A stretch of DNA of 64,000 nt from Patescibacteria group bacterium (GTDB lineage Bacteria; Patescibacteriota; Microgenomatia; UBA8517), in contig AP024680.1 of assembly GCA_025999275.1 (NCBI GenBank), positions 318,393 to 382,392 of the forward strand, read 5' to 3'. The translations under genes and the position numbers were made by a program. The notes under the pieces are model-generated. The model ran no database searches. It was not told where the DNA came from and worked only from the letters and a program-made list of their open reading frames with translations. Positions 10,234 through 44,582 of this stretch are shown one piece after another (positions within the stretch are counted from its first letter, which is position 1; every line of letters begins with the position of its first letter).

Positions 10234-10860
10234 TTATTTTTTCTTTAGTGCACAGACATGATAGCAGCTGGTATATTCTTCGATTTTCCCATCCTTTTCT
10301 CTATAATTTTTTTCTACAATTACATTACAAAAGCCTTCTTTTTCCAGTTCTAATAATATTTCCAATAGTTTTTGGGGAAAATCAGAGTAAAAAGAGATGT
10401 CTTTGCTTGAGATTGGTTTTATTTCTCCATTCTTCTTGTAATAATAGCCGTTGGGATCAAAATCTATTGCAGCACCTGCTTGATGTGTGCTTATATCAGC
10501 TGCTATTTTTCCTTCTTCAATTAGCCTTTTTTGTTCTTCTTTTGTTCTATAAAGAGAGGTTACTGAAAGAAGAATTTTATCTCCATACTGTTCCTGCCAC
10601 CTTTTATCTATTAATTCTAATGTGTCAATAGCCTCTTTTCTTAAAAGAGGATATCTTTCTTTATTTCTTAGTCTGTAGATTAATCGATAGCCAGTTCCGA
10701 TTTCTGGCACTTCTGACAATTCTTCAGGTTTGGTGTTCTCTATTTCTTCTCTCCAGAAAGGGAGTTCTTTTTCTTCTACAATTCGGTTTACCCTTAGCCT
10801 TTCTGTTTTTCTTAATTCTTCTAAAATTGTTCTTTTTTCTACTTCTTGATTATTTTCCAT
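10234..10860 (-). CDS. Peptidase M15 (VanX/VanY-like D-Ala-D-Ala peptidase) family protein, apparently cytoplasmic
   Basis: STHQAGAAIDFD matches the M15 zinc-binding S-x-H-x-x-G-x-A-x-D motif, with a later His (CYHVC). No signal peptide or TM was seen. Confidence 0.5.
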   Translation of the reverse strand: MENNQEVEKRTILEELRKTERLRVNRIVEEKELPFWREEIENTKPEELSEVPEIGTGYRLIYRLRNKERYPLLRKEAIDTLELIDKRWQEQYGDKILLSVTSLYRTKEEQKRLIEEGKIAADISTHQAGAAIDFDPNGYYYKKNGEIKPISSKDISFYSDFPQKLLEILLELEKEGFCNVIVEKNYREKDGKIEEYTSCYHVCALKKK

Positions 10861-11548
10861 TTATCTTTAGTTTTATAATTCTTCCTTTGAAAATATTTTC
10901 AAACTCTTCCAACTTTATAAATTGCGATTTACCTTCCTTTTTGTAATTATAAGGGTTATGATACCAAAAGCCTTTTATTTCTTCATTTTTGTCTATTTCA
11001 AATCCATAAATAAGTATCAGATGCCCGCCCGTTAGGCTTTTAACCGATGACAAGATGTAGTTGTTGTTTAGGATTTCATTTGCTATTTCTTCTGTGGCAA
11101 TGACAGATTTTCTTTCCGATAAAATTCCATGTCTTTGTGCAATTTTGACTATTGCATCGTGGTACCAACCAACATCTCTTTCGAATTTATAGCCTTTTAT
11201 TTTTAAACCCTTTTTTACCAAGTCGTATATTTTTGTATTATCCTTTTTCCCTTCCTTTTTAGATTTTGTCTTTATAACAGAAAGTAAGCAGGCCAGGGCG
11301 CAAGATCTCCATACCCAGAAGCTAAAGTCTTTCTTGCTTTTGGCACCAAATTTTTTTTGAGCATTTCTGTCATTTATTTGGCCGTAGAATTTTTCTATAT
11401 TTTCCTCTTTTGCATTTGCCAACTGGCTTATGTAGACCGGCTTGGGATTAACAAAATATTTTCCGGGTTTTAATTTTTTGACCTTTTTCTTTATAGCTAT
11501 TTTTTTGAACAGGTTAATTTTTGCTATTATGTTTTTTATCTTTTCCAT
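10850..11548 (-). CDS. C39-like (papain-fold) cysteine peptidase domain protein
   Basis: WRSCALACLLSV (Cys in a C-G/A-A-C-L context) and a downstream GGHLILIYG His motif resemble the Peptidase_C39_2 family. The N-terminus is Lys-rich. Overlaps the downstream M15 gene by 11 nt. Confidence 0.45.
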   Translation of the reverse strand: MEKIKNIIAKINLFKKIAIKKKVKKLKPGKYFVNPKPVYISQLANAKEENIEKFYGQINDRNAQKKFGAKSKKDFSFWVWRSCALACLLSVIKTKSKKEGKKDNTKIYDLVKKGLKIKGYKFERDVGWYHDAIVKIAQRHGILSERKSVIATEEIANEILNNNYILSSVKSLTGGHLILIYGFEIDKNEEIKGFWYHNPYNYKKEGKSQFIKLEEFENIFKGRIIKLKINGK

Positions 11549-19290: not shown

Positions 19291-20379
19291 ATGCCTGAAG
19301 TAAGACAAAGAGTAGAAGATGTTCAAAAAACTCTTAATGAGATTAAAAAATCTCTTAAAATTGAGGACAAAAAAACTCGACTTAAAGAGCTTGAAGCCGC
19401 TTCTCTTGATCCTGATTTTTGGAACGACCAGCAAAAGGCAAAACAAGTGATGCAGGAAATTGGCAATCTTCGTGATCTTATCGATAAGATTAAATCTTTT
19501 GAGGATGAAGTTGTTATTCTTTATGATCTAGTTAGAGAGAGCAAGGATGATGATGTTTTTGAGAAAGATGTGAGTTCTCTTGAAGAGAAGATGAAGGAGT
19601 TAAAACTAGCCTCTTTTCTTGATGGGCGTTATGATGAGAGGAATGCAATTGTTTCAATTCACGCTGGTCAAGGAGGGACGGAAGCAATGGATTGGGCCAG
19701 CATGCTTTATAGAATGTATCTTCGTTATGCAGAAAGAAAGGGTTTTAAAACAGAAACACTAGATTTAACTGAAGGTGAGGAAGCTGGGATAAAAAGTGTT
19801 ACTTTTAAAATAATAGGTCCTTATGCCTATGGATATTTAAAGGGAGAGTCAGGTACTCATCGTTTGGTTCGTCAGTCGCCTTTTAATGCAGATCATTTGA
19901 GGGAAACTTCTTTTGCTTTAGTTGGTGTTTTACCAGAAATTGGAGAAGTAGATGCTTCTGATATTAATTTTATAGATGAGGATCTTGAATGGCAGTTTTT
20001 TCGCTCTTCAAGCCAAGGAGGGCAAAATGTTCAGAAGGTTTCAACAGCGGTTAGAGTAAAACATATACCCACAGGAATAATAGTAACTTGCCAAACTCAG
20101 AGATTTCAGGAACAAAACCGTAAGATTGCTCTTGAACTATTGCGCGCCAAACTTTGGGCTCTTGAAGAAGAAAAAAAGAATAAAGAGGTCAAGGAAATAA
20201 AGGGTGAATATAGGCCTGCTTCATGGGGAAATCAGATAAGAAGTTATGTTCTTCATCCTTATAAAATGGTAAAAGACTTAAGGACTCAAGTCGAAACTTC
20301 CAATACTGAGGCTGTTTTGAATGGCGAAATAGATGATTTTATTGAGGCTGAAATAATGTCAAATTCAAGCTCTACTTGA
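19291..20379 (+). CDS. prfB: Peptide chain release factor 2
   Basis: SPF tripeptide (QSPFNADH) and the GGQ motif (SSQGGQNVQKV). The ORF is uninterrupted, with no +1 frameshift site. Confidence 0.9.
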   Translation: MPEVRQRVEDVQKTLNEIKKSLKIEDKKTRLKELEAASLDPDFWNDQQKAKQVMQEIGNLRDLIDKIKSFEDEVVILYDLVRESKDDDVFEKDVSSLEEKMKELKLASFLDGRYDERNAIVSIHAGQGGTEAMDWASMLYRMYLRYAERKGFKTETLDLTEGEEAGIKSVTFKIIGPYAYGYLKGESGTHRLVRQSPFNADHLRETSFALVGVLPEIGEVDASDINFIDEDLEWQFFRSSSQGGQNVQKVSTAVRVKHIPTGIIVTCQTQRFQEQNRKIALELLRAKLWALEEEKKNKEVKEIKGEYRPASWGNQIRSYVLHPYKMVKDLRTQVETSNTEAVLNGEIDDFIEAEIMSNSSST

Positions 20380-20411: not shown

Positions 20412-20897
20412 ATGGATGAGAATCAAGTTTCAATAAACCAATCAAATACTAATAACAATCAGTCGTCTGTTGAAAAACCGATGTTGGGGAAAGTTACTTC
20501 CAGTTCTTCTAAAAATTTGATTATGATTACGCTTGCAGTTTTTGTTGTTGGGATGGGAATCTTTACTGGTTGGATTATCTCAGGAGGTTTGAAAGGAAAG
20601 CCAAAAACATCAACTTCTGAAGGGCAAGTTGTCAAAACTAGTAAAGAAGCTGGGGTAAGCGACGAGAAAACTTTTAAAGATACAGCTACTGGTGTTTTGA
20701 AACAGGGAGGTGTTAATGGTGAAGGAACTCACCATTTGGAAAGAGAAGGTGGTCCTTCTCAATATGTTTATTTGACTTCTTCTGTGATTGATCTTGATTC
20801 TTTTATAGATAAAAAGGTGCAGGTTTGGGGGGAAACAATATCGGCCGCCAAAGCTGGTTGGTTTATGGATGTTGGTAAAGTCAAAGTTCTTGAGTGA
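20412..20897 (+). CDS. Hypothetical membrane-anchored protein
   Basis: Asn/Gln-rich N-terminus, one TM, then a ~100-aa exported domain. No known motif. Confidence 0.4.
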   Translation: MDENQVSINQSNTNNNQSSVEKPMLGKVTSSSSKNLIMITLAVFVVGMGIFTGWIISGGLKGKPKTSTSEGQVVKTSKEAGVSDEKTFKDTATGVLKQGGVNGEGTHHLEREGGPSQYVYLTSSVIDLDSFIDKKVQVWGETISAAKAGWFMDVGKVKVLE

Positions 20898-20915
20898 CAA
20901 GGTCCGTCCTTGTCA
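20895..20915. terminator. GC-rich palindromic hairpin, family B (TGACAAGGTCCGTCCTTGTCA)
   Basis: 8-bp stem with a 5-nt loop overlapping the TGA stop, followed by a T-rich run. The identical 21-mer recurs at 33039. Confidence 0.55.
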
Positions 20916-20963
20916 TTATTTCTCTTCTTGTTAAGCTTTCCAAAATTTAGTAATCTTAAGTTA

Positions 20964-21623
20964 ATGCTTGAAGTTGTCGATGTTAGCAAAACTTACGGTG
21001 ATATAGTGGCTTTAAATAAGATTTCTTTTAGTGCTGAGGCTGGTGAATTGGTTTTTATCACTGGAAAATCAGGATCTGGCAAGACAACTCTTCTTAAGCT
21101 AATTTTGAGGGAAATTTTTCCTGACAGTGGAAAGATTTTATTTGAGGGTAAAGATATATTTTCTCTTAAAGGCAGTGAAATTCCTTTATATAGGCAAAAG
21201 ATTGGCGTAGTGTTTCAGGATTTTAAGATTTTAACAGAGAAAACAGTACGAGAAAATGTAGAAATTGCTTTGGCTGTAGTAGGTGTTCCTTCTTCTGAAT
21301 GGAATATTCGTGTTGATGAAGTTCTAAAAATGACTGGCCTTGACAGACGAAGTGAGCTTTTTCCTCTACAACTTTCCGGAGGAGAATTGCAAAGAGTTTC
21401 TCTAGCCCGTGCCTTGGTAGTCAACCCCCAAATTATTCTTGCAGATGAGCCGACTGGCAATCTTGACTGGGAAACGTCGGAGGGTATTATGGAATTATTC
21501 AAGAAAGTGGTTGAATCAGGCAAACTGGTCTTGATGGCAACACATAATCTAGCTTTGGTAGATAAGTATTCAAAGGTTGAAAAAGGAAGTAAAATGAAAA
21601 CTAAGGTTATTAATCTTTCTTAA
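20964..21623 (+). CDS. ftsE: Cell division ATP-binding protein FtsE
   Basis: ABC ATPase with Walker A GKSGSGKTT, signature LSGGELQRV and Walker B ILADEPTGNLD. Start set at the Met at 20964 (MLEVVDVSK). Confidence 0.9.
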   Translation: MLEVVDVSKTYGDIVALNKISFSAEAGELVFITGKSGSGKTTLLKLILREIFPDSGKILFEGKDIFSLKGSEIPLYRQKIGVVFQDFKILTEKTVRENVEIALAVVGVPSSEWNIRVDEVLKMTGLDRRSELFPLQLSGGELQRVSLARALVVNPQIILADEPTGNLDWETSEGIMELFKKVVESGKLVLMATHNLALVDKYSKVEKGSKMKTKVINLS

Positions 21624-21625
21624 AA

Positions 21626-22543
21626 ATGGGAATTCATTTTAAGACAGCTATAAGAAATATAATTAGGTCTCCTTTTCAGGCTTTTGCTGCTGTTTTTGTT
21701 TTGGCAATTACTTTCTTTATTGTTAGTATACTTGTTGCTCTTCTTTACTCTTCAAGTCAAGTTTTACATTATTTTGAAACAAGGCCACAAGTTATAGCTT
21801 TTTTGAAGTCAGATGTTTCAGCCGGTGATATTTATAATCTTCAGCAAAAGTTGAGTTCTGATACTCGAGTCAAGGAGGTTCGTTATGTTTCAAAAGAAGA
21901 TGCTTTGAAAATTTACAAGGAGGCAACTTCCGAGACTCCTCTTTTAGCTGAATTAGTTAGCCCTACAGCTTTTCCTGCCAGTCTTGAATTGTCGCTTGTT
22001 AAGCTTGACTACGCTCAAGAATTAATTAGTGAGTTAAAGCAAGAGAAACTAGTTGATCAGGTTGGCTTTACTGCAAACTTGGGGGGAGAGGCAACTTTGA
22101 ACAATACCATAAACAGACTCAAATCCATAGTAAATTATTTGAGATTAGGAGGCGGAATTTTTACGGCTTTCTTGGCTGTCACTTCCCTTATGGTTCTTTT
22201 GGTGGTTATAAGTATGAGATTAATGGCAAGGAAGCAGGAGGTGGATATTCTTAATTTGATTGGTGCAACACCACTTTTTGTTGCAAGTCCTGTTATTTTA
22301 GAGGCGTTTATTTATGTTTTAGTTGGAGTTTTTATTGGTTGGCTTTTGGCTTTTGTTTTGGTTTTATATTTTGCTCCGTCTTTGATTTCTTACTTTGGGC
22401 AGATCGAAATTTTACCAAAAGATACATTTACTCTTTTTAAAATGTCGTTATTAGTTTTGTTTGCAGAATGGCTGGCTGGGTTTGTTTTGGCTTTTTTGGG
22501 GAGCTTCCTTGCAATATCTCGTTTATCCAAAAAGAAGGCCTAG
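21626..22543 (+). CDS. ftsX: Cell division permease FtsX
   Basis: Four-TM FtsX topology with a large first periplasmic loop. Immediately follows ftsE. Confidence 0.8.
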   Translation: MGIHFKTAIRNIIRSPFQAFAAVFVLAITFFIVSILVALLYSSSQVLHYFETRPQVIAFLKSDVSAGDIYNLQQKLSSDTRVKEVRYVSKEDALKIYKEATSETPLLAELVSPTAFPASLELSLVKLDYAQELISELKQEKLVDQVGFTANLGGEATLNNTINRLKSIVNYLRLGGGIFTAFLAVTSLMVLLVVISMRLMARKQEVDILNLIGATPLFVASPVILEAFIYVLVGVFIGWLLAFVLVLYFAPSLISYFGQIEILPKDTFTLFKMSLLVLFAEWLAGFVLAFLGSFLAISRLSKKKA

Positions 22544-22553
22544 TTGTTAAAAA

Positions 22554-23729
22554 ATGCGCTTGCTTTTAAAAAAATTTTTCTTTTTTGTTTTATTAATCTT
22601 TCTTTTTGTGTTTTTATTTTCTTCTTTTACTGTTAGAGCGCAAGATCAGGATATTTCTCGTGACCAAAAATTAAAGGAATTGCAAGATCAAATTGCAAAG
22701 TATGAAGAGGAATTGAGTCGTCTTCGCCAACAATCAGCAACCTTAAGCAATCAAATAGCCCAGTATGACGCTCAGATTGCCCTTGCTACTTTGCAGATTG
22801 AGGAGACACAAAGAAAAATAGAGCTTTTAGAGGGTAGGATTGGACAGCTCGAAAATTCTTTAGACGCTTTAACTAAGGCTTTCTCATCACGTGCGGCTGA
22901 GACTTACAAAATGGTTAAGCTGGGCGAGCCGATTTTGTTTTTAATCTCATCTCCTGATCTTTCAACGGCGGTTTCAAGATTTCATTATCTAAAACTTATT
23001 CAACGATATGATCAAGAGCTTTTGATTAAACTTCAAGCAACCCAAACAACATATCAAGATCAAAAAACGGATCAGGAGTCTTTACAGAAACAGCTTGAAA
23101 AGCAAAAGGCCAATCTTGATGCTCAAAAGGCAGCTAAGGCTAATTTGTTGGCAGCGAGTAAAAATGATGAGAGGTATTACCAAAGACTTTTAACTCAAGC
23201 CAGAAGTCAGCTTGCAGCTTTGAGGCGTTATGTCACAAGTCAGGGTGGAGCAACTATCTTGCAAAATCAAACCAAGTGCGATGGTTGGGGTTGCTATTAT
23301 AACCAGCGAGATAGCCAGTGGGGGACAATTGGCATAGGTGGATCTTCTTATTCAGTGGCTGAATATGGATGTCTTATTTCTTCAATTGCAATGATTAGTA
23401 GCCATTATGGCAAAAAGCTGACGCCAGGTGATATTGCTATTAATCCGAATTATTTTGTCCCCGGAACTGGTTATATTTACCACTCAGCAGAAGGAATGCC
23501 TTTTACAATTAGCACGGCTTCAGTATCACAACTTGATAGTCTTCTTTCTAAAGGCCCTGTAATTGCAGGTCTTTACTCTGGGCCTGATCATTTTATTGTT
23601 ATTTTAAGAAAAGAAGGGAACGATTATATAATGCATGATCCTTTTATGCCTGATGGGGCAAATCGCCGATTGACTGAAAAATATAAAGTTTCAGATATCA
23701 CAAGTCTAAGATTGGTAAGCTTTAATTGA
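22554..23729 (+). CDS. Coiled-coil protein with C-terminal C39-like cysteine peptidase domain (putative FtsEX-regulated peptidoglycan hydrolase, PcsB/EnvC analog)
   Basis: Signal/TM at the N-terminus, ~200 aa of heptad-rich coiled coil (LKELQDQIAKYEEELSRLRQQ), then a C-terminal domain with EYGCLISSIAMISSHYG (Cys) and GPDHFIVILRKEG (His). Position right after ftsEX supports the role. Confidence 0.6.
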   Translation: MRLLLKKFFFFVLLIFLFVFLFSSFTVRAQDQDISRDQKLKELQDQIAKYEEELSRLRQQSATLSNQIAQYDAQIALATLQIEETQRKIELLEGRIGQLENSLDALTKAFSSRAAETYKMVKLGEPILFLISSPDLSTAVSRFHYLKLIQRYDQELLIKLQATQTTYQDQKTDQESLQKQLEKQKANLDAQKAAKANLLAASKNDERYYQRLLTQARSQLAALRRYVTSQGGATILQNQTKCDGWGCYYNQRDSQWGTIGIGGSSYSVAEYGCLISSIAMISSHYGKKLTPGDIAINPNYFVPGTGYIYHSAEGMPFTISTASVSQLDSLLSKGPVIAGLYSGPDHFIVILRKEGNDYIMHDPFMPDGANRRLTEKYKVSDITSLRLVSFN

Positions 23730-23841: not shown

Positions 23842-25074
23842 ATGGCCCAAGTTTCAAAAGCTTCTAAGAATGTTTATCTAGAGATTTTGTGTACAAGTTT
23901 TATTTCGTTCCTAAAAATTAAAAAAGATAGTTTTTTCATTTCATATAAAAATTATTTTGCTCGATTCTTTATTTTTGTATTTATTTCTTTTGCTGTCTTA
24001 TTTTTGTCTTTTTCGGAAGTTGCCGCTCAAGTGGTGATTAATGAGTTTCATCCCAATTCACCTGAGTGGGTAGAATTTTACAATAGTAGTTCTGACGTCA
24101 TAAATCTTTCTGATTTTTGGTTTGATGATGACGATAATTTTGTTTCTGATATAGGTACTTCTTCTAAAAGAAGATTGTCTGGTTTATTGAGTGGTGGCGC
24201 AACTTGCTATTTGGATCTTAATAGTTATTTAAATGATAATGGAGACAAGCCAACTATTTTTAGCTTGTCGGGGGAGATAATTGATAGTTATTCTTATATA
24301 TCATCTTTAGGAGATAAAACTTACTCTAGAGATCCTGATGGTGGTGAATGGGCTTCGGCTGGTATGGATCCGACAAAATCTCTGACCAATTGTTTGTCTC
24401 TGGCCACTCCAACTCCTACTCAAACTCCCACTCCAACACCAGTTTCCACTTCATCCTCTAATTCTTCTAGTTCAAAAGCAACGGTTAAAATAAATAGTGC
24501 CAAAGATCAAAACGGAAACGAACTTTTAGGATCGTTGAAAATTTACATCGACGGAAATTATACTGGCAATTATGCTCCAGAGACTTATACATTTTGTAGT
24601 GATTGTAAGTGTGGTAGTAATAATGTCCCTTGTGGTTTTGGCAATCACACTTTTAAAGTTGAAAAGACTGGTTATAATTCTTGGACAAAAACAGCGGAAA
24701 TAAGTGCTGATAATAATTATGAATTTGATCCAGTTTTGACTTTAGTATCTTCTAGTCCTTCTCCAACTTTGAAGGCAACTCCCACCGCAACTGCTTCAGC
24801 AACGCCAAAATCAACAACTTTTAATCTTTCAACTTCTAGCGAATCAGCGCTTCTTGCTGAGGATGTTTTTTCTAATAATAAAGGGGTTTTGGGTGCTTTT
24901 TCTGAAAGCAAGACATCAACTCCTGTTCCCAACCAATCTGATTCAAAGTTTAAATTAGCAGCTCTGTTTTTTATTATTTCGGGTCTTTCTTTTTTGGGAT
25001 CGGCCGTTTATGCTTATCTAAAGAAAAAGAAAAATGCAAAACCAGATGAGTCTAAAAGTGAAGAAGCTGGTTAA
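23842..25074 (+). CDS. Lamin-tail-domain (LTD) cell-surface protein with PEGA-like domain and C-terminal membrane anchor
   Basis: VVINEFHPNSPEWVEFYNSSSDVINLSDFWFDDDD matches the LTD consensus. A TPTPT linker follows. The Cys-rich YTGNYAPETYTF...FKVEKTGYNSWTKTAEI region looks PEGA-like. C-terminal TM with a KKKK tail. Confidence 0.6.
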   Translation: MAQVSKASKNVYLEILCTSFISFLKIKKDSFFISYKNYFARFFIFVFISFAVLFLSFSEVAAQVVINEFHPNSPEWVEFYNSSSDVINLSDFWFDDDDNFVSDIGTSSKRRLSGLLSGGATCYLDLNSYLNDNGDKPTIFSLSGEIIDSYSYISSLGDKTYSRDPDGGEWASAGMDPTKSLTNCLSLATPTPTQTPTPTPVSTSSSNSSSSKATVKINSAKDQNGNELLGSLKIYIDGNYTGNYAPETYTFCSDCKCGSNNVPCGFGNHTFKVEKTGYNSWTKTAEISADNNYEFDPVLTLVSSSPSPTLKATPTATASATPKSTTFNLSTSSESALLAEDVFSNNKGVLGAFSESKTSTPVPNQSDSKFKLAALFFIISGLSFLGSAVYAYLKKKKNAKPDESKSEEAG

Positions 25075-25444
25075 ACTTTGGGCGCCGCCTGTTTTTTGGA
25101 TGGCGCTTATTTTTTTTCTTAGCTCTCGTCCTACACTCAAAACGACTCAAATTTACTGGCAGGATTTTATTATCAAAAAAACAGCTCATTTTATTGAGTA
25201 TGCAATTTTGGCTTTTCTTTATCTCCGTGGCTTTTTGGGAAGCGGTTTTCCAAAAAAGAAGTCGTTTATTTTTGCACTTGTTCTTTGTATTTTGTATGCC
25301 GCTTCTGATGAATTTCACCAGTCTTTTATTCCCGGTCGGGAGCCAAGAATAAGGGATGTGATAATTGATACCATTGGCGCTTTTTCATCTTTGTACTATT
25401 TTGTCTTTTATAGAAAAAAGCCCTTTAAGTATTTGCAATCTTAA
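25034..25444 (+). CDS. VanZ-like family membrane protein
   Basis: DEFHQSFIPGREPRIRDVIIDTIGA matches the VanZ signature. Overlaps the end of the LTD gene, and the exact start is uncertain. Confidence 0.6.
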   Translation: MQNQMSLKVKKLVKLWAPPVFWMALIFFLSSRPTLKTTQIYWQDFIIKKTAHFIEYAILAFLYLRGFLGSGFPKKKSFIFALVLCILYAASDEFHQSFIPGREPRIRDVIIDTIGAFSSLYYFVFYRKKPFKYLQS

Positions 25445-25468
25445 ATCAATCTGCACTATTATTAATTA

Positions 25469-26098
25469 ATGGCAAGGGAATCTGCTATTCAAAAAGAAAA
25501 GAAAAAGGTTTCTTCCTATCTTAATATTGCCGGTGAGGTCTTTATTCTTTTTTCAATCTTAATTTTGTTTTTCACCTATGGGCCGGTGACAAAAGAGGAG
25601 GTTTCCTATCAGATAAGACAAGTAGTTAAAAACAAAGAAGTCAAAGAAATCCAGCCTGTCAACACTCAATTTTCAATCGTTATTCCAAAACTTGAAGTTT
25701 CAGCGCCTGTATTTGCTTCTGTTGATCCTTTTAATCCAAGCGAATACTTGCCCGTCTTAAAAAAGGGAGTTGCTCATTCAAAATATTCCTCTTTTCCTGA
25801 CAGTTTTGGCAACACTTACCTTTTTGCCCATTCAACCGACGCTTTTTATAATGTTGGCAAATATAACGCTGTTTTTTATCTTCTTGGAAAATTAGAAAAG
25901 GGAGATGAGATAGATGTTTATTATAAGGACCAAAAATATGTTTATAGAGTATCTGATAAGAAAGTTGTTGAACCGAAGGACGTGTTTTATTTGGTCAATT
26001 CTGGAAAGGGAAATATTTTAACTCTTCAGACTTGCTATCCGCCAGGAACAACGTTAAAGCGTTTGATTGTTATTGCTAATCAGGAAGTTGGGATATAG
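25469..26098 (+). CDS. Sortase-family transpeptidase
   Basis: N-terminal TM, conserved His (YLFAHSTD) and the catalytic TLQTC (TLxTC) motif near the C-terminus. Confidence 0.75.
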   Translation: MARESAIQKEKKKVSSYLNIAGEVFILFSILILFFTYGPVTKEEVSYQIRQVVKNKEVKEIQPVNTQFSIVIPKLEVSAPVFASVDPFNPSEYLPVLKKGVAHSKYSSFPDSFGNTYLFAHSTDAFYNVGKYNAVFYLLGKLEKGDEIDVYYKDQKYVYRVSDKKVVEPKDVFYLVNSGKGNILTLQTCYPPGTTLKRLIVIANQEVGI

Positions 26099-26265
26099 TA
26101 AAATTGAACAGGCTTTTTTAGCTAAATATTGACTTTTCCTATAGCAAGTGTTATAAAGCATTTGGGTAGCCTAGCCTTATATAGATGCACAAAAATAAAA
26201 GACGGCTAATTGCCTTAATATCTGCCTTTTCGGTTTTAATTAACTCGCTCTCCTTTTAGTCTCCT

Positions 26266-29200
26266 TTGGTTGTTTTAGCTCAAGAAACACAGGAAGGGAC
26301 TCCTGTAGTTGAAAATCAGCCGCAACAGACAGAAACATCTACACCCCAGCCAACAGAATCAGTAGCTGAGACAAGTACTCCAAATCCTAGTGTTAGCCCT
26401 TCTTTAGAGCCAAGTCCTGCACCTAGCCTAGAGCCTTCTCCAATAAACAATCTTCAAACTGAAACCCCTACACCAACAGCAACACCAGCTCAGGAAGTTT
26501 TGGGAGCAGATACAAATACCACCACTCCTTTTCCCTCAACGCCGGCAAGCGAAGACAAGAATAAAGATGCTCATATCAATGCTGTGGTTTTAAGTGATGT
26601 TAGCGCCTCAAGTATTGATGAAGCTGATTTATCCTATCTTGAAAGTGCCACTAGCGCCACTTTGAGAACTGATAAATTTGACTATTCGCCGACTGATGCT
26701 GTTGTTATAACTGGCGAAGGATTTGCTCCAAATACCGAGTATGAATTGGTCATTACTTCTGGTACTGGTAATTTTAGATTTTCTGATCGTGTCACCTCTG
26801 ATGAATCAGGTGGGCTTTTCTATACCTATCAACTCGACGGCACCTACAGGCCGGAGTATAAGGCGGAAGTGTTTGATTTGTTGGGTGGTGTAGCTGCTTC
26901 GGTCAATTTTTCAGATAGTGATAAAGTTCGTCTTTGCCATCGTACCAAATCTGATAGTAACCCATATGTTTACTTAGAGGTGAATATTAAAAATAACGGA
27001 GATTTGAAAGGTGGCCACCTTAATCATACCGGACCAATATGGTATCCTGGCATTCAAGGCAAATGGGGAGATATTATCCCTCCCTATTCCAGTGGTAATT
27101 TTAACTACTCTGGGATGAACTGGGATGCTAATGGTCAAGCTATTTGGAACAATGGTTGTAAGTTGCAAATAGCTTGTCAAGAAGGTCCCAGTTGGACAAG
27201 TGATGTGATCTCTTTTAATCAAGGTAAGAATAAAGATGGTTCTGATGTACCAGAAGAAAGATCTGATCCCTATAATGCATTAGGAAAACCTGACAGTTTT
27301 GGTAATGATGTTAATTTTGTTAGTCTTGGTAAAGGTGGCTCCATTGTTCTGGTTTTTCTTGGATGGGTGAAAGATAAAGAAGGTAATGATCTTTCCTTCC
27401 ATGAGGTTACTTGGGGTAGAGAAAACTATCCTGAAGAGAAAGCAAAAGTAGAGGTAAGCCAAGATGGCGATAGTTGGTATGGAGATTGGATTGTAAGCAG
27501 TAAAGCTACAAATGGTATTGGTTATATTGATTTTTCTTCAACTAGGTTGTCTTGGGTAAAATATGTAAGGATTACCGATACTACAGATTTTAGTCTTCAT
27601 ACTAATGATGCTGATGGATATGATCTCGATGCGTTAGATGCGGTTTATCAGCTGTGTAGTTTACCTTCTCCTTCACCGACTTTATCTCCTTCTCCTACTC
27701 CAGCTCCTTATTGTGGAGATGGCGTCAAGAATGGTCAAGAACAATGCGATGGGTCTGATGGGGTTGGTCAAAATCAATTTTGTACCAAAAATTGCAAACT
27801 TATTCCAATTTATGATGGATTTCATTCTTGTCCCGCTGGAACGGTTAAAAGTCAAAGTCCTGTTTTATCAAAGACAATATCCGCAACCGATTCTGATGGA
27901 GAAACTTTTAACCTGACTGCTGGAGGAAAATATCTTTTTGAAGTTAGTGGTGTTTACAGCTATGATAAGAGCAATTCTGCTAAATGGGCCGATGCTGCCT
28001 ATGCTACTGACAATAATTGGTCTAGCGCTAGATCTGATATTGGTATTTGGGAAACAAATAGAGGTGTAACTTCTCTACTTGCTGATTTTGGTAAGGGGGT
28101 GGGTGTTGTTGAGTGGGATGATAATCAAGTATATAATTCTGACCATACTTATCAAAAGTATTATTCTCCAACTACCAATTCAGTTAAGTTCTTAATAAGC
28201 GATTGGTACGATGAATGGTACAGCTCGCCATATAATAATCAATCAGCAATGTCTGATAATTCTGGTAGCTTAAGTTTAGATGTTTATGAATGCCAACCTG
28301 TATCAGAAGTTACTGTCTGTAAATATGACAATGAAGAACACCCTTTGAGTGATTGGCGAGTTTATCTTTTAGGAGATAAAGTAGGAAATACTATTTCTGT
28401 TCCTTCTAATGGCACTGTAGTTAACGCTGGTTCTTATCCAAATGATAATTATGTTCTTTTGGCCTCGGGTACTTATAACTATGGGAATGATCGGATGAAT
28501 GCTGATGCGGCTAATTCTTATCGTTATGTTGGACTTCCTTGCAGTGGGCCAACTGATGGGTGGGTGAGTGGAGAGTCTTCTTGTATGGGAAATTATCTTT
28601 CTTTGAATTTTTCAACTAGCGGGGGGCCAACAGCTCCCGGATGGGGAGATTACTACAACCCCGATCATATATATGCAAAATTTTTTGCCGGCGGCGGTTT
28701 GAATTTAAAAGTTTGGGATAGGTGTAGTAGTAATCAAGTGGAAGGATGTTATGGTGATAATGAAGGATCTTTAAGTCTTGATATTTATAAAGGTTTTGTT
28801 GGCGATACAGGGGAAAATGGATGTGTAACATTTACTAACGTTCCTTATGGGGCATATCAATTAGGTGAAATTTTACAGGAAGGATGGCAGAAAGTCAGTG
28901 GTTCGGGTGAGGTAGTAATTGACAGTGATGAGGAAAATTTTGATTTAATTAATAATGAATTGCCTAAAAAAGGCAATCTAAAAGTTTCCAAAGTCGTTGA
29001 CTGGAAAAATGTTACGCCAGACACTTCTAAAACTTTTGAAATTTGTATAACAGGACCTTCTTATCCTAATCCTGATTGTAAAACAGCTGATTATGATGGT
29101 GAAACACTTGAATGGAAAGATATTTTAGCTGGTGATTATACTGTAACAGAAACCACTCCAACAGGCGGTTGGATAGTAACAGGGTCAGGTCAAACTGTAA

Positions 29201-32200
29201 CTGTTAATAAAGATCAGACTTCTTCTGTTGAAATAAAGAATGAAGCAAATTCGATTATCATTAAAGCCTATAAGGTGGTTTGTGATAGCGAGCAATATTT
29301 GCCAAACTGGGGAAACCATGGAAGCGTGATTGGCGCTAATACAGCTCAAAGTTTTGTTAATAATTCTCAAGGCCATTGCCGGCTTGAGGATGGATGGAAA
29401 TTCCAATATGCACCTAAGGGTTCTGGTAGTAATGGTGCATTTCAAACCAACACACAGGAGTTGGGAACTCCTTGGACAACTTTCGGTCCTACTGTTGGCG
29501 GCGAAGCAGTAGCTGTAATAAATGATATTTCTAATTTTGATGGTCGAATTGAAACGAGAGAAGTTTTTAAAGACAATACCTATATTCCTTTTTCAAACAG
29601 TAGTAATAATGTAAGTGCGGAATTTTACTGCACTGGTGATACGTATAATTATGACAACTGGGAGTGGATAAATAACCCGCAATACGGCAGCACCTACTAT
29701 TGTGTTGCTTTTAATGCCAAGAAAAGCACTGTAATTTCAGGGAGGAAGTTTAATGATTTAAATTACAATGGTAAAGATGATGAAGAGCCTGGCCTTGAAA
29801 ACTGGAAAATTTTGGCGGCTCAAAAGGTAGATGAAGTTAATGTTTCGGCAAAAGATATGCCAACAGTTTCTTCAAATATTCCTTTGATCTCTGGTCAAGA
29901 GTATCTTTTAAGAGTTTCCGGGACTTATCAAGCCGGAGATAATATTACAGCCGATGCAAAATACTCAGTTCGTAGCCCAAATACTTACTGGACTGATTAT
30001 GTTCAAAATTATCAATCTTATGGACCAACTCTTTTAGATTTGCAAATTAATAATAATTCTTATGACTGGGGAAGTTATAATCCAAATCATGTTTATTGGT
30101 TAATTCTTTCTGGTGGTGGTTCGCCAATTAATTTTAGGCTTAATGATATTTATCCATCAAATAATTCAGGATCTTTAAATGTTAAAATTTATAAAGTCAT
30201 TTCCGAAACAACTACCGCAAACGATGGAAGTTATCAGCTAACTTTAACCAGTGATCCTGGATCAGATATAATTGTGGCTGAAGAAACTCAAAGCGGTTAT
30301 ATGCAAATCACTCCAAATGGCGAAAATTTTGGTTACTGCAATGTCACTTCATACCAAGAAAATAAATGTAATTTCGGTAATGCTTTAGCTTATGGTTCAA
30401 TTTATGGTTATAAGTATGATGAAGATAGAGAAACTGGACTTGGTGGCTGGACTATATTTATAGATGATAATAATAATGGTATTTTGGATCAGGGTGAGAA
30501 AGACGCTACCACAAGTGATGATGAAAAAAACAATGGCTATTATGAGTTTAATGGTCTAACGGCAGGGACATATTCTGTTTGTGAGGTAGAGCAAGAAGGC
30601 TGGCAGAGGATGTATCCCCTTGGTTCTAACTGTCAATCTGTGACAATTACTTCTGGATCTAAATTTGAGGTTGATTTCCAAAACAGGAAAGTTGTTTTGG
30701 GGCTTAGTCTTACAAAGTCAAACGATGCCGCAACTGCCTTGTCTGCTGGAAGCCAAGTTAATTATACTTTAAAGATTAAAAATACAGGTAATCAGAAATT
30801 GACTGGAGTTATTATCAAAGATGCTCCTGCTGGTGGATTTACTTATGTTGATGATAGTGGCATTCTTGATAGCAATCCGATTAATCCTACTCAATTGGGG
30901 GGCTATCTTGACTGGTATATTGGAGATCTTGATGCAGGAGAGGAAAAAGTGTTGTCTTACAAGATGTCAACTAATAGTGGCATGATCTCTGGCATTTATC
31001 CAAATGTTGCCATAGCGACTGGAATTTATACACCGTCTGAATATCAACCTGAAGAGGTGGTTACAAATAGATCCTTGGTAGTTGAAGCATTGGCTGTTGA
31101 TGGTGACTCTGGGGAAGAAAGGGTTGAAAGCAATGCCGGTGTTCCCGTTAACTCTCAGGTTGAAATTAAGGCTCCTTTGGCTTACTCAACTGGAGTTGGG
31201 GGAACAGGGGGGCAAGTTTTGGGCGCATCAACTGAGGCCGGTGAAGTTTTGCCTGCTGCTGGTTCTGATAGCCGAATAGTTTTGTTTGCTCTCTTGGGTC
31301 TTATTTTGGGAGCTTTGCTTAAAGTTTCAGGATTAGCTCTAGAGAGAAACTGGGTAGATTATAGGAAATTAAAGAAAAATATTAAAAGAATGGGTAGTTT
31401 TATTGCAGTCTTGATTTTCCTTCTTGGTTTTGCCCCTTCTGCTAGGGCTTTCTCTGACTATGTTTATATAACTCAACTGCCAGCTTATCTAAACAAGGAA
31501 GATTTCAAAATTTCCTATTCCGCTCTTTCTGAAAACCCAATTTCTGCTCAGTTTTATATTAGGAAAGACGGGGATTCAAGCTGGAGGACTCTTGGTTCTT
31601 CTTTGTCTGGAGCCTCGGGATATGTGCAAGTTCATGGCGGGGATATTTACAATGGTGATGGTAAATATTTCTTCAAGGTGGTTATAAATAGCGGGTCGGC
31701 TGAAGATCAAACTTCAACCATAATTGACAGACAGTCTCCTGATCCAGTTCGTGATTATTGGAAAGAGAAGTTAGGGGATGGACATTACAAGCTTCATTGG
31801 AGAAATCCTGACAATGAGGATTTTGATAAGGTAATAATTTATCGCTCGGATAGTACCAATTTTACGGCTGATTCCTCAACTGAGATAGCCACAGTTTGGG
31901 GGTCAAGGAATTCTGAAATGACTTATGAGAATGCCGCAGTAGCAGGAAAAGAATACTATTTTGCCATTAGGGCAATTGATAAGGCGGGAAATGCATCAAG
32001 CGTTGTTGCTGATCCTGAGACACAAGTTTCAGCAGGTGCTGTGTTAGGTGAGTCAACGGTGGCAACCGGTTCTCCTAAAGCAGAGGTGGTCAAGATTTTG
32101 CCAAAAGAAGAAAAGAAGGGTGAGGTTTTAGGCGAGGAGAATAGAGAGGAGGAGCCAGTTTCTTCTCCAACACCTGAAGTTCAAGAACAATCAGGCGGTG

Positions 32201-32319
32201 TTTTGGGCCAGGCAATAAAATTTGCCAAAGATAGAACAAAAATTACTCTTCTTATCGCTCTTGGCCTTGGGATTGTTTCTTATTACCTGTCTCGTCTTTG
32301 GAAAAAGAATAAGAATTAA
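26266..32319 (+). CDS. Giant (2017-aa ORF) multi-domain surface adhesin; possibly two in-frame fused genes
   Basis: Thr/Pro-rich N-terminus, a Myxococcus-type Cys-rich repeat (CGDGVKNGQEQCDGSDG), several SdrD-B/CnaB-like Ca-binding folds (DDNNNGILDQGEKD, GTYSVCEV), a DUF11-like repeat (VNYTLKIKNTGNQKLTGVII), and a fibronectin-III-like module near the end. An internal LPAAG + hydrophobic + basic segment at 31248..31389 is followed by a second signal-peptide-like Met at 31390. The track start is TTG; an in-frame signal peptide ORF lies upstream at 26185, separated by a TAG. Confidence 0.7.
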   Translation: MVVLAQETQEGTPVVENQPQQTETSTPQPTESVAETSTPNPSVSPSLEPSPAPSLEPSPINNLQTETPTPTATPAQEVLGADTNTTTPFPSTPASEDKNKDAHINAVVLSDVSASSIDEADLSYLESATSATLRTDKFDYSPTDAVVITGEGFAPNTEYELVITSGTGNFRFSDRVTSDESGGLFYTYQLDGTYRPEYKAEVFDLLGGVAASVNFSDSDKVRLCHRTKSDSNPYVYLEVNIKNNGDLKGGHLNHTGPIWYPGIQGKWGDIIPPYSSGNFNYSGMNWDANGQAIWNNGCKLQIACQEGPSWTSDVISFNQGKNKDGSDVPEERSDPYNALGKPDSFGNDVNFVSLGKGGSIVLVFLGWVKDKEGNDLSFHEVTWGRENYPEEKAKVEVSQDGDSWYGDWIVSSKATNGIGYIDFSSTRLSWVKYVRITDTTDFSLHTNDADGYDLDALDAVYQLCSLPSPSPTLSPSPTPAPYCGDGVKNGQEQCDGSDGVGQNQFCTKNCKLIPIYDGFHSCPAGTVKSQSPVLSKTISATDSDGETFNLTAGGKYLFEVSGVYSYDKSNSAKWADAAYATDNNWSSARSDIGIWETNRGVTSLLADFGKGVGVVEWDDNQVYNSDHTYQKYYSPTTNSVKFLISDWYDEWYSSPYNNQSAMSDNSGSLSLDVYECQPVSEVTVCKYDNEEHPLSDWRVYLLGDKVGNTISVPSNGTVVNAGSYPNDNYVLLASGTYNYGNDRMNADAANSYRYVGLPCSGPTDGWVSGESSCMGNYLSLNFSTSGGPTAPGWGDYYNPDHIYAKFFAGGGLNLKVWDRCSSNQVEGCYGDNEGSLSLDIYKGFVGDTGENGCVTFTNVPYGAYQLGEILQEGWQKVSGSGEVVIDSDEENFDLINNELPKKGNLKVSKVVDWKNVTPDTSKTFEICITGPSYPNPDCKTADYDGETLEWKDILAGDYTVTETTPTGGWIVTGSGQTVTVNKDQTSSVEIKNEANSIIIKAYKVVCDSEQYLPNWGNHGSVIGANTAQSFVNNSQGHCRLEDGWKFQYAPKGSGSNGAFQTNTQELGTPWTTFGPTVGGEAVAVINDISNFDGRIETREVFKDNTYIPFSNSSNNVSAEFYCTGDTYNYDNWEWINNPQYGSTYYCVAFNAKKSTVISGRKFNDLNYNGKDDEEPGLENWKILAAQKVDEVNVSAKDMPTVSSNIPLISGQEYLLRVSGTYQAGDNITADAKYSVRSPNTYWTDYVQNYQSYGPTLLDLQINNNSYDWGSYNPNHVYWLILSGGGSPINFRLNDIYPSNNSGSLNVKIYKVISETTTANDGSYQLTLTSDPGSDIIVAEETQSGYMQITPNGENFGYCNVTSYQENKCNFGNALAYGSIYGYKYDEDRETGLGGWTIFIDDNNNGILDQGEKDATTSDDEKNNGYYEFNGLTAGTYSVCEVEQEGWQRMYPLGSNCQSVTITSGSKFEVDFQNRKVVLGLSLTKSNDAATALSAGSQVNYTLKIKNTGNQKLTGVIIKDAPAGGFTYVDDSGILDSNPINPTQLGGYLDWYIGDLDAGEEKVLSYKMSTNSGMISGIYPNVAIATGIYTPSEYQPEEVVTNRSLVVEALAVDGDSGEERVESNAGVPVNSQVEIKAPLAYSTGVGGTGGQVLGASTEAGEVLPAAGSDSRIVLFALLGLILGALLKVSGLALERNWVDYRKLKKNIKRMGSFIAVLIFLLGFAPSARAFSDYVYITQLPAYLNKEDFKISYSALSENPISAQFYIRKDGDSSWRTLGSSLSGASGYVQVHGGDIYNGDGKYFFKVVINSGSAEDQTSTIIDRQSPDPVRDYWKEKLGDGHYKLHWRNPDNEDFDKVIIYRSDSTNFTADSSTEIATVWGSRNSEMTYENAAVAGKEYYFAIRAIDKAGNASSVVADPETQVSAGAVLGESTVATGSPKAEVVKILPKEEKKGEVLGEENREEEPVSSPTPEVQEQSGGVLGQAIKFAKDRTKITLLIALGLGIVSYYLSRLWKKNKN

Positions 32320-33041: not shown

Positions 33042-33059
33042 CAAGGTCCGTCCTTGTCA
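33039..33059. terminator. GC-rich palindromic hairpin, family B (bidirectional position)
   Basis: TGACAAGGTCCGTCCTTGTCA incorporates the pyrH TGA and sits between convergent pyrH and the GT-C gene. Confidence 0.55.
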
Positions 33060-34538
33060 GTTGATAATTTGATATAAAAGTAAGGAATCTGTTGGGTTTT
33101 CTTTCCATGGAGGCTTGGGAATCTCTTTTATTAAGTTTAGATTGGGATTTTGAACAAGGTTTGATTTGTGGATTACAAAATAAACAGGTTTTTCTTTAAG
33201 TTTTTCATAAACATAAGATTCGATTTGTGAGCTACTATACCAAACTTCAATATTTTTGTTTTTGCCGATATAAATCTCAAGTCCGTCAGGCAATGTTCCA
33301 AAGGCACCAGCTGTAACAACTAAAATTTTTTGATCTTTTGCTTTCTCTTTTAGAAAATTAGCCATTTCTTTTATTCCATAACCTGCTGTCCATCCTTCAA
33401 AGTACCCATCTTTTTCTTTTTTAGGTAGATTGGCTTGCCATGGTTTTGTAATAAGCTGATAATCAAAAATTATTGCTGGGATTAAGACCAGAGTGGTTAG
33501 AGTGCTAAAAACAGCCTTTCTGTTTTTGGCTATTTTTTCTGATATTTCTGCAAAAGACCAACTGGCAAGAAAGATGAATGTAACTATACTTGGTAGAATA
33601 TATCTTGCCGTGTAGGTTTTAAGAAGAGCAGTAAGTATAATGAAAGGAATAGCTCCCCAAAGGAAAATTATTATGTTTTCCTTTTTCTTTTTGTAAAGGG
33701 AGAGAAAAATTGCAAATATAAAAGTTAAGAAAACAGGCCAAGTCATCAATTTGGTAAGAAAAACAAAACCTTCTTTGGTGTTGCCTATAAATGGATCAAG
33801 TGGTTTCTCCCAGAGTCGCGATATGGGGAAATGATAATACTCATTTCTTTTTCCAAGTTGTTTGAAATAGGGGCTAATTCTAAGTGAATTGTATAGGCAC
33901 AATCCTATTATTGCTGATAAAGTAAGTCCCAAAATTGATTTTGTTAGTTTCTTTTTATTTTTAAAGTCGGCTTTTATTAAAGCTAGTGGAAGTAGAAAGA
34001 AATTAAACATTCCGGGTGTTTTGGTTAGTATTGAAGCTCCTAAGATTAGTCCTAGAAGTATTATATTTTTGGCTGACGGTTTTTCTACCGTCTCAAGAGC
34101 AAGAATTAGTGACCAAAATGAAAAAGCAGCAAGCATCGAATCGGTTAATGCCATTCGATCAAAAAATACCAAAAATGGAGTAAAGGTAAAAAATAGAGCA
34201 GCAACCAAAGCTGTTTTTGGTTGGAAATACCTTTTGGAGAGATAGTATGCTCCATAAAGTGTGAGAAGGCTTATTAAGATTGAGACTATTCTTCCTGCCA
34301 GAAGAGGATCGGATATAATTTTTAAGCTTGGCACAACCAACCACATAAATAGTGGAGTTTTACCATCGACAAGTGGAATAAATAAATTAATTTTGGGATT
34401 TTCGATGATTTTTTGCGCCCAATGGATATAGATTGCCTCATCACAAAATACTGGCTGTAGATTGAGGTTGTAGGTTCTGATCAGAAGGTAAAATGTGATG
34501 ATTAAAATGGCAGATAAAAAAAGTTTTTTGTGCTTCAT
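33057..34538 (-). CDS. GT-C-fold glycosyltransferase (ArnT/PMT family, GT39/GT83-like)
   Basis: Polytopic, with the N-terminal loop motif VFCDEAIYIHWAQKI (DE..Y) characteristic of ArnT/PMT-type lipid-linked-sugar transferases. 493 aa. Confidence 0.6.
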   Translation of the reverse strand: MKHKKLFLSAILIITFYLLIRTYNLNLQPVFCDEAIYIHWAQKIIENPKINLFIPLVDGKTPLFMWLVVPSLKIISDPLLAGRIVSILISLLTLYGAYYLSKRYFQPKTALVAALFFTFTPFLVFFDRMALTDSMLAAFSFWSLILALETVEKPSAKNIILLGLILGASILTKTPGMFNFFLLPLALIKADFKNKKKLTKSILGLTLSAIIGLCLYNSLRISPYFKQLGKRNEYYHFPISRLWEKPLDPFIGNTKEGFVFLTKLMTWPVFLTFIFAIFLSLYKKKKENIIIFLWGAIPFIILTALLKTYTARYILPSIVTFIFLASWSFAEISEKIAKNRKAVFSTLTTLVLIPAIIFDYQLITKPWQANLPKKEKDGYFEGWTAGYGIKEMANFLKEKAKDQKILVVTAGAFGTLPDGLEIYIGKNKNIEVWYSSSQIESYVYEKLKEKPVYFVIHKSNLVQNPNLNLIKEIPKPPWKENPTDSLLLYQIIN

Positions 34539-44578: not shown

Positions 44579-44582
44579 TTTT

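Follow-up and report, generated by a model that had tools for sequence, protein, structure and literature searches.

A putative FtsEX-activated cell-wall hydrolase with a Peptidase_C39_2-type domain in a Microgenomatia genome

Three consecutive genes in a 64,000-nucleotide (nt) stretch of DNA from a Patescibacteria group bacterium of the Microgenomatia (assembly GCA_025999275.1, contig AP024680.1, positions 318,393 to 382,392; hereafter the window, in whose coordinates all positions are given) probably encode a single FtsEX-type machine for cell-wall remodelling. Its parts would be the ATPase FtsE, the permease-like protein FtsX, and a secreted protein of 391 amino acids (aa), the product of orf391, which by analogy with characterised systems we take to be a peptidoglycan hydrolase activated by FtsEX. 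Hydrolases controlled by FtsEX are the best understood case in which an ATP-binding cassette (ABC) transporter fold switches wall cleavage mechanically. The three genes are:

20964..21623, + strand: ftsE, ATPase subunit of FtsEX (ATG start at 20964; 219 aa)
21626..22543, + strand: ftsX, permease-like FtsEX subunit with four transmembrane (TM) segments (305 aa)
22554..23729, + strand: orf391, the third gene, encoding a secreted protein with a coiled coil and a cysteine peptidase domain of the C39_2 type; proposed to be a wall hydrolase under FtsEX control (391 aa)

The genes are tightly packed, with gaps of 2 nt between ftsE and ftsX and 10 nt between ftsX and orf391, and no terminator-like site was found at either junction. 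A terminator-like hairpin does lie upstream of ftsE (20893-20917), where it overlaps the stop codon of the preceding gene, which encodes a 161-aa protein. A first-pass annotation of this DNA, made from its letters, had described ftsE, ftsX, and a secreted protein with a coiled coil and a Cys/His peptidase domain in direct succession, and every one of these features was located where that annotation had placed it.

The first two genes are a bona fide ftsEX pair. FtsE matches the Pfam family ABC_tran (1.3e-35) and retains intact Walker A, Walker B, LSGG signature, and H-loop motifs. Its top match in NCBIfam is the FtsE model TIGR02673, with which residues 1-204 align over model positions 1-205; the score of 245.8 bits leads by 65 bits and narrowly misses the cut-off of 264.85. 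FtsX exceeds the Pfam cut-offs for both FtsX_ECD (53.8 bits, 3e-14) and FtsX (42.5 bits, 8e-11), and its matches in the PDB are exclusively to FtsX chains. According to hydropathy, FtsX has four TM segments, the first two of which (TM1 and TM2) are separated by a large loop, and the extracellular domain spans approximately residues 45-175. The NCBIfam equivalog score of FtsX is likewise below its cut-off (139 against 255), and we attribute the sub-cut-off equivalog scores of both proteins to divergence of the lineage, which is the presumed cause.

The association of orf391 with ftsEX is not peculiar to this genome. When each GTDB species was represented by a single genome, 314 of the genomes scanned contained a relative, and we compared the best 80 of these 314 loci, 74 of which had enough upstream sequence for neighbours to be counted (with “directly upstream” defined as less than 250 nt). 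The orf391 homologue was directly preceded by ftsX in 71/74 loci, and by ftsE too in 69. The order prfB, small TM protein, ftsE, ftsX, orf391 persists even though the identity of FtsX drops to ~28% and the downstream genes vary, and in many loci the orf391 homologue overlaps ftsX or lies 10 nt from it. At the prfB position of related loci, the gene product has PCRF and RF-1 domains. A broader search with the C-terminal domain of the 391-aa protein against 1.84 billion representatives yielded 601 cluster matches at E<=1e-3, most of them proteins of 380-450 aa in which the domain is C-terminal, which is the architecture of the 391-aa protein; two cluster representatives with domain identities of 33-34% likewise follow ftsX directly.

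The window is part of a metagenome-assembled genome. The 391-aa protein itself is 100% identical to “hypothetical protein KatS3mg088_365”, and its nearest relatives are Woesebacteria. Record titles among the best 80 loci name Woese-, Collier-, Shapiro-, Levy-, Pace-, Ames-, and Daviesbacteria, Microgenomates, or plain “Patescibacteria”, and the rest carry other labels. Many contigs among loci L005-L083 are titled “uncultured Gammaproteobacteria”, “Pseudomonadales”, “Alphaproteobacteria”, “Acidiferrales”, or “Sulfotelmatobacter”. Because the gene order at these loci equals the Patescibacteria type, we set such labels aside; they are probably mislabelled or mis-binned submissions of metagenome-assembled genomes. 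The syntenic genomes seem to come from a single lineage, that of Microgenomates-type Patescibacteria. In one distant relative (P0252), a protein with a Peptidase_M23 domain is encoded directly after the ftsX-C39 pair (locus L087, 2576-3514), and the FtsEX locus of some lineages may bring together hydrolases of two kinds.

The part of the 391-aa protein that precedes the peptidase domain consists of two segments:

22554..22640, + strand: N-terminal signal peptide or anchor, residues 1-29, in which MRLLLKK precedes 18 hydrophobic residues and VRA|Q; read from the sequence
22647..23246, + strand: antiparallel coiled-coil hairpin (helices 32-122 and 136-231, with a short tip helix 125-132, as modelled by AlphaFold2)

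The N-terminus looks like either a cleaved signal peptide or a retained anchor, and AlphaFold2 places a helix at residues 2-23 of this signal-like region. In the model, which was built on a 62-sequence alignment and has a predicted local distance difference test score (pLDDT) of 84, the coiled coil forms a hairpin of ~200 aa made of two helices of ~90 residues, in agreement with the length estimated in the first-pass annotation, and is followed by a globular domain at residues 240-391 with a pLDDT of ~90. When the full-length model was searched against the PDB with Foldseek, the top match was PcsB (4cgk), and the first ten matches also included FtsEX-bound EnvC (8tzl_E), the N-terminal coiled coil of RipA (6ewy, TM-score 0.79 on the target), and, for the globular part, the C39 peptidase domain of ComA (3k8u, 5xe8). 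SteB-RipA (9hmx) was matched as well. The matches below PcsB were interspersed with generic coiled-coil structures; a Foldseek search of viral structures was uninformative, being dominated by coiled-coil matches.

Profile comparisons point in the same direction as the fold. The NCBIfam model of EnvC (NF008644) is colinear with the hairpin (residues 38-224 against positions 4-196, E=1.3e-6), and the Pfam family CC_PcsB is matched by 45 of the 62 homologues (best E=1.1e-7) and, at 31.8 bits, above the cut-off of 27, by a distant relative (P0134). We consider the predicted coiled coil to be specifically PcsB/EnvC/RipA-like by its modelled fold and, at the level of the family, by its Pfam matches. 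Conservation of the hairpin across the wide family is highest at residues 191-220, in the second helix and ~20 residues ahead of the catalytic domain; more speculatively, this segment is a candidate for a regulatory contact.

The remainder of the protein contains the features on which a catalytic role would depend:

23271..23726, + strand: Peptidase_C39_2-type papain-fold catalytic domain, predicted from Pfam scores and fold matches (residues 240-391)
23304..23306, + strand: Gln251, predicted oxyanion-hole residue (YYNQRD); invariant, codon verified
23370..23372, + strand: Cys273, predicted catalytic nucleophile (EYGCL); invariant, codon verified
23589..23591, + strand: His346, predicted catalytic base (GPDHF); invariant, codon verified
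23637..23639, + strand: Asp362, predicted third triad member (HDPF); invariant, codon verified

The C-terminal domain scores 28.2 bits against Peptidase_C39_2 (PF13529; cut-off 24), and there is a marginal, overlapping match to Peptidase_C39 (PF03412) at 24.0 bits against a cut-off of 22. Neither CHAP (PF05257) nor NlpC/P60 (PF00877) matched this domain at E<=1, and no Pfam match to M23 was obtained in the 391-aa protein. The protein also falls far below the NCBIfam cut-offs for PcsB (NF046104; 16.8 bits against 450) and EnvC (NF008644; 27.7 bits against 270, and for the coiled-coil part only). The same pattern holds among relatives: Peptidase_C39_2 and Peptidase_C39 were matched by 62/62 full-length homologues and by 16/16 isolated domains, and CHAP and NlpC/P60 by 0/16 isolated domains at E<=1 and, among the families listed, 0/62 full-length homologues at E<=0.01. 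More distant relatives reach C39_2 scores of up to 63.9 bits across the whole model.

Conservation was assessed in three alignments, one of 62 close homologues (A1), one of 48 diverse cluster representatives at 19-45% identity (A3), and one of 39 representatives of other lengths or architectures (A4). Gln251, Cys273, His346, and Asp362 are invariant in all three, down to 19% full-length identity, and the papain-like active-site order Gln/Cys/His/Asp is kept, as in Peptidase_C39_2. The motifs around the predicted nucleophile and base are EYGCLISSIAMISSHYG (residues 270-286) and GPDHFIVILRKEG (residues 343-355). The nearest solved folds of the domain are of the C39/C39_2 type and include the leader peptidases of ComA and PCAT1, and the best structural match is PeiR, a protein associated with cross-bridge/isopeptide cleavage. 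Among the top 60 fold matches, NlpC/P60 ranks 47th and no entry is named as CHAP. When the domain was searched as a profile against the sequences in the PDB, no relative was detected, and PHROGs returned no match for it.

On these grounds, the C-terminal domain is predicted to be a papain-fold cysteine peptidase of the Peptidase_C39_2 type and not a CHAP or NlpC/P60 domain. This is the assignment that the first-pass annotation had preferred, along with a conserved Cys and His. Given that the domain does not score as CHAP and that neither residue is lost among the homologues, that interpretation is supported. A separate feature of the domain is a cysteine pair, C242/C247 (KCDGWGC; 23277-23294), which flanks the predicted tight beta-hairpin with which the catalytic domain starts. 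The pair is invariant in the 62 close homologues and not conserved in the wider family, and it may form a lineage-specific disulfide.

The catalytic or regulatory modules established for FtsEX partners are LytM (EnvC), CHAP (PcsB), and NlpC/P60 (CwlO, RipC) (PMC11627006). The 391-aa protein resembles PcsB of S. pneumoniae (4CGK) in its predicted export, its N-terminal coiled coil, and its C-terminal Cys/His hydrolase domain of the papain clan, and it differs from PcsB in that the catalytic domain is predicted to be C39_2-type rather than CHAP, and in that its coiled coil is modelled as a simple two-helix hairpin rather than a five-helix V-shaped domain. A two-helix coiled coil fused to a papain-clan cysteine peptidase is also the architecture of CwlO (Bacillus subtilis) and RipC (Mycobacterium/Corynebacterium). 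In these proteins the coiled coil binds FtsX and the NlpC/P60 endopeptidase is active; FtsX binding by the 391-aa protein is proposed by analogy. With EnvC (E. coli, Vibrio, Pseudomonas) it shares a (here predicted) signal peptide, an antiparallel hairpin of ~200 residues, and a C-terminal globular domain. Unlike EnvC, which has a catalytically dead metallopeptidase fold and acts as an amidase activator, it is a predicted cysteine peptidase with invariant catalytic residues. Because the catalytic set is intact, we liken the 391-aa protein to the direct hydrolases PcsB, CwlO, and RipC and not to the dead activator EnvC.

The protein also stands apart from other C39-related proteins. An FtsEX-type coiled coil and an ftsEX-linked position distinguish it from other Peptidase_C39_2 proteins, such as the C39-like peptidase 3ERV from B. 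anthracis, enzymes of the BtrH/CtaG type, and the N5 domains of LysA from mycobacteriophages. The C39 domains of ComA, PCAT1, and LagD are cytoplasmic and N-terminal on an ABC exporter, whereas the C39_2 domain here is C-terminal on a separate polypeptide and, as judged from the order of its segments, extracytoplasmic, behind the coiled coil. CHAP, NlpC/P60, and C39 all fall within the papain-like clan, so a C39_2 output would be a module swap within a known design. The gene order prfB-ftsE-ftsX is found in pneumococcus as well, although there pcsB, unlike orf391, is not known to be adjacent to ftsEX. With the synteny of 71/74 loci and a hairpin fold like that of PcsB, EnvC, and RipA, the comparison bears out the architecture of an FtsEX-activated hydrolase that the first-pass annotation had recognised.

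A mechanism can be drawn by analogy to EnvC, PcsB, and RipC as summarised in PMC11627006. In the FtsX dimer, the extracellular domains would be the docking site of the exported hairpin, and the binding and hydrolysis of ATP by FtsE would shift these domains and thereby distort the hairpin. This distortion would in turn lift the autoinhibition of the C39_2 domain at the hairpin's far end, where it would sit ~13 nm from the membrane (90 residues x 1.5 Å), and the released domain could then cleave a peptide or amide bond of peptidoglycan, in division or growth. Peptidoglycan is the favoured substrate from the intact catalytic set, the PeiR fold match, the presence of the peptidoglycan-binding domain LysM fused to a related C39_2 domain in 5/39 relatives of other architecture, and the listing of such domains in phage lysins. 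Peptidase_C39_2 is included among the enzymatic domains found in the lysins of phages that infect Gram-positive bacteria (PMC8223927), and a cysteine-protease domain of mycobacteriophage LysA has been matched to a C39-like peptidase of B. anthracis (PMC3314691).

Several points weigh against this reading. The lysin assignments in PMC8223927 and PMC3314691 were made by classification or bioinformatic prediction. The 391-aa protein matches C39_2 over part of the model (positions 5-40) and just 4 bits above the cut-off, and with CC_PcsB it scores 13.4 bits, short of the cut-off of 27. In the PDB search, the hairpin resembles EnvC in sequence (E ~1e-6 to 5e-4) no more closely than it resembles tropomyosin; for this reason we do not count it as homology, and the case for homology of the coiled coil therefore rests on the family-level Pfam matches and the fold. 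The predicted TM-score (pTM) of the 391-aa model is 0.50, which makes the domain-to-domain geometry uncertain, and it is because of this uncertainty that autoinhibition is assumed by analogy. Finally, some relatives (L075 and P0265) are not adjacent to ftsEX, and shared ancestry within one lineage could account for much of the synteny.

The last two points are also those that would favour a reading in which the adjacency has no functional meaning, the 391-aa protein being a secreted C39_2 peptidase on a generic coiled-coil stalk whose gene order was merely inherited: the syntenic genomes are apparently all of one lineage, and some relatives are located elsewhere in their genomes. However, the block persists as FtsX falls to ~28% identity and as the flanking genes change, its genes are in many loci 10 nt apart or overlapping, and the coiled coil is specifically PcsB/EnvC/RipA-like by predicted fold and Pfam, and we regard such an explanation as very unlikely. 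It is also improbable, if less so, that the protein is an EnvC-like adaptor whose C-terminal domain leaves the cutting of the wall to another hydrolase (an amidase or M23 enzyme, for instance), which it binds and activates. EnvC does show the same architecture with a globular domain that is regulatory rather than catalytic, and in the one relative mentioned above (L087) an M23-domain protein is encoded directly downstream. Yet the LytM domain of EnvC has lost its catalytic residues, and here the Gln, Cys, His, and Asp are invariant to 19% identity, from which we argue that catalysis is under selection; further, no conserved gene for a partner hydrolase lies alongside the operon in the compared loci.

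The nature of the substrate raises a different question. To our knowledge, muralytic activity has been biochemically demonstrated for no member of Peptidase_C39_2, the characterised C39 peptidases cut peptide leaders (with ComA and PCAT1 among the nearest solved folds of the domain), and genes for surface proteins (LTD/PEGA, sortase, and a 2017-aa SpaA/DUF11 protein) lie just downstream. All of this would suit an FtsEX-tethered protease that cuts a protein or peptide, be it a surface protein, a pilin, a sortase substrate, or a divisome component, with the coiled coil still serving for FtsX docking or regulation. We give this a small but real chance, since relatives of the C39_2 domain carry LysM, the downstream genes differ among genomes while ftsEX-orf391 is constant, and all characterised coiled-coil partners of FtsEX govern peptidoglycan hydrolysis (review PMC11627006). 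A bacteriocin or peptide export system, in which a MacB/FtsX-like exporter would act with a C39 domain that removes double-glycine leaders, might be suggested by the Peptidase_C39 score of 24.0 bits, barely above its cut-off of 22, and by the second-best NCBIfam match of the ATPase, a putative bacteriocin-export ABC protein. But C39 leader peptidases are cytoplasmic N-terminal domains of exporters, whereas here the domain is preceded by a signal sequence and 200 residues of coiled coil, and FtsX carries an extracellular domain of the FtsX-specific type and has PDB matches to FtsX alone. In addition, FtsE leads the matches of the ATPase by 65 bits, no precursor-peptide or immunity gene was seen among the conserved neighbours compared, and the order prfB-ftsE-ftsX is known in Firmicutes too. 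Topology and the identification of FtsX led us to reject the exporter reading, to which we attach hardly any credence.

If orf391 does encode an FtsEX-activated hydrolase, its place among the known systems needs one correction to the first-pass annotation, which had called the C39_2 module a third solution to this regulatory design. That count overlooked CwlO and RipC; because their NlpC/P60 modules are already established in FtsEX partners (PMC11627006), C39_2 would be the fourth. In the literature searched, no combination of FtsEX with a C39-type partner was described. Annotation pipelines label homologues as “peptidoglycan hydrolase CwlO-like protein” (Joint Genome Institute) or “C39 family peptidase” (National Center for Biotechnology Information), so the pieces are already recognised, and it is the synthesis that we did not find published. 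That C39_2 represents a fourth, hitherto uncharacterised class of FtsEX-controlled hydrolase, perhaps the main septal or growth autolysin of Microgenomates-type Patescibacteria and maybe with a bond specificity unlike that of CHAP and NlpC/P60 enzymes, for instance PeiR-like, is a bolder proposal, and one that we advance tentatively and with more doubt than belief. If it is true, the interface between coiled coil and FtsX would be a portable regulatory cassette that has been reused with a further catalytic domain. A Peptidase_C39_2 member would then have a testable function, the first physiological role in a large and poorly understood family, and a likely division or growth autolysin would be identified for a large group of uncultivated bacteria with reduced genomes and a little-studied divisome. 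The family of the 391-aa protein is compact (~390 aa) and strongly conserved, which suits it to recombinant work.

The genes flanking the ftsEX locus in the window are:

19291..20379, + strand: prfB, release factor 2 (362-aa open reading frame); upstream neighbour, included as context and not as a functional part
20412..20897, + strand: single-pass membrane protein (161 aa), encoded between prfB and ftsE
23842-25074, + strand: LTD/PEGA protein
25034-25444, + strand: VanZ
25469-26098, + strand: sortase
26266-32319, + strand: SpaA/DUF11 surface protein (2017 aa)

In the 161-aa protein, which matched no Pfam family, an N-terminus rich in Ser and Asn is followed by one TM segment (approximately residues 37-55) and a C-terminal part of ~100 aa. 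It is kept at the same position in most of the best 80 related loci, at 25-71% identity, and, like SweC/SweD or SteB elsewhere, it may act as an accessory factor for FtsEX. Wall-related neighbours in the window, which speak for the main reading, are a LytR_C-domain protein, VanZ, the sortase, and the giant SpaA-domain protein. The last three belong, together with the LTD/PEGA protein, to the surface-protein cluster directly downstream of orf391 (23842-32319, + strand). The LTD/PEGA protein has Thr/Pro/Ser-rich linkers and a C-terminal TM segment, and the cluster as a whole hints at a pilus or adhesin that depends on the sortase. In many related loci, too, VanZ is encoded downstream of the orf391 homologue, at a distance of a few genes.

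Elsewhere in the window, a second C39-like protein had been reported at 10850..11548. The gene (10850-11548, - strand) does encode a 232-aa papain-like protein, which has no obvious signal peptide, but the family was not upheld, as its C39_2 score of 20.1 bits is below the cut-off and it matches best as Peptidase_C70/AvrRpt2-like (24.8 bits, above the cut-off). A comparison with hhalign found no relationship between this protein and the FtsEX-linked C39_2 domain (probability 0.6%), and the 232-aa and 391-aa proteins are therefore not detectable paralogues. The 232-aa gene is overlapped by 11 nt by a gene on the same strand (10234-10860, - strand) for a DUF5715 protein with weak matches to M15-type peptidases, and the two may form another wall-peptide processing unit. 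Three consecutive open reading frames of 515-548 aa (41392-46220, + strand) stand out by their low guanine-cytosine content (28-30% against ~36% elsewhere). The first two encode PMT_2-type glycosyltransferases, the second of which also carries TPR repeats, and the third is without a Pfam match; a fourth PMT_2/PMT protein is encoded at 33057-34538 on the - strand.

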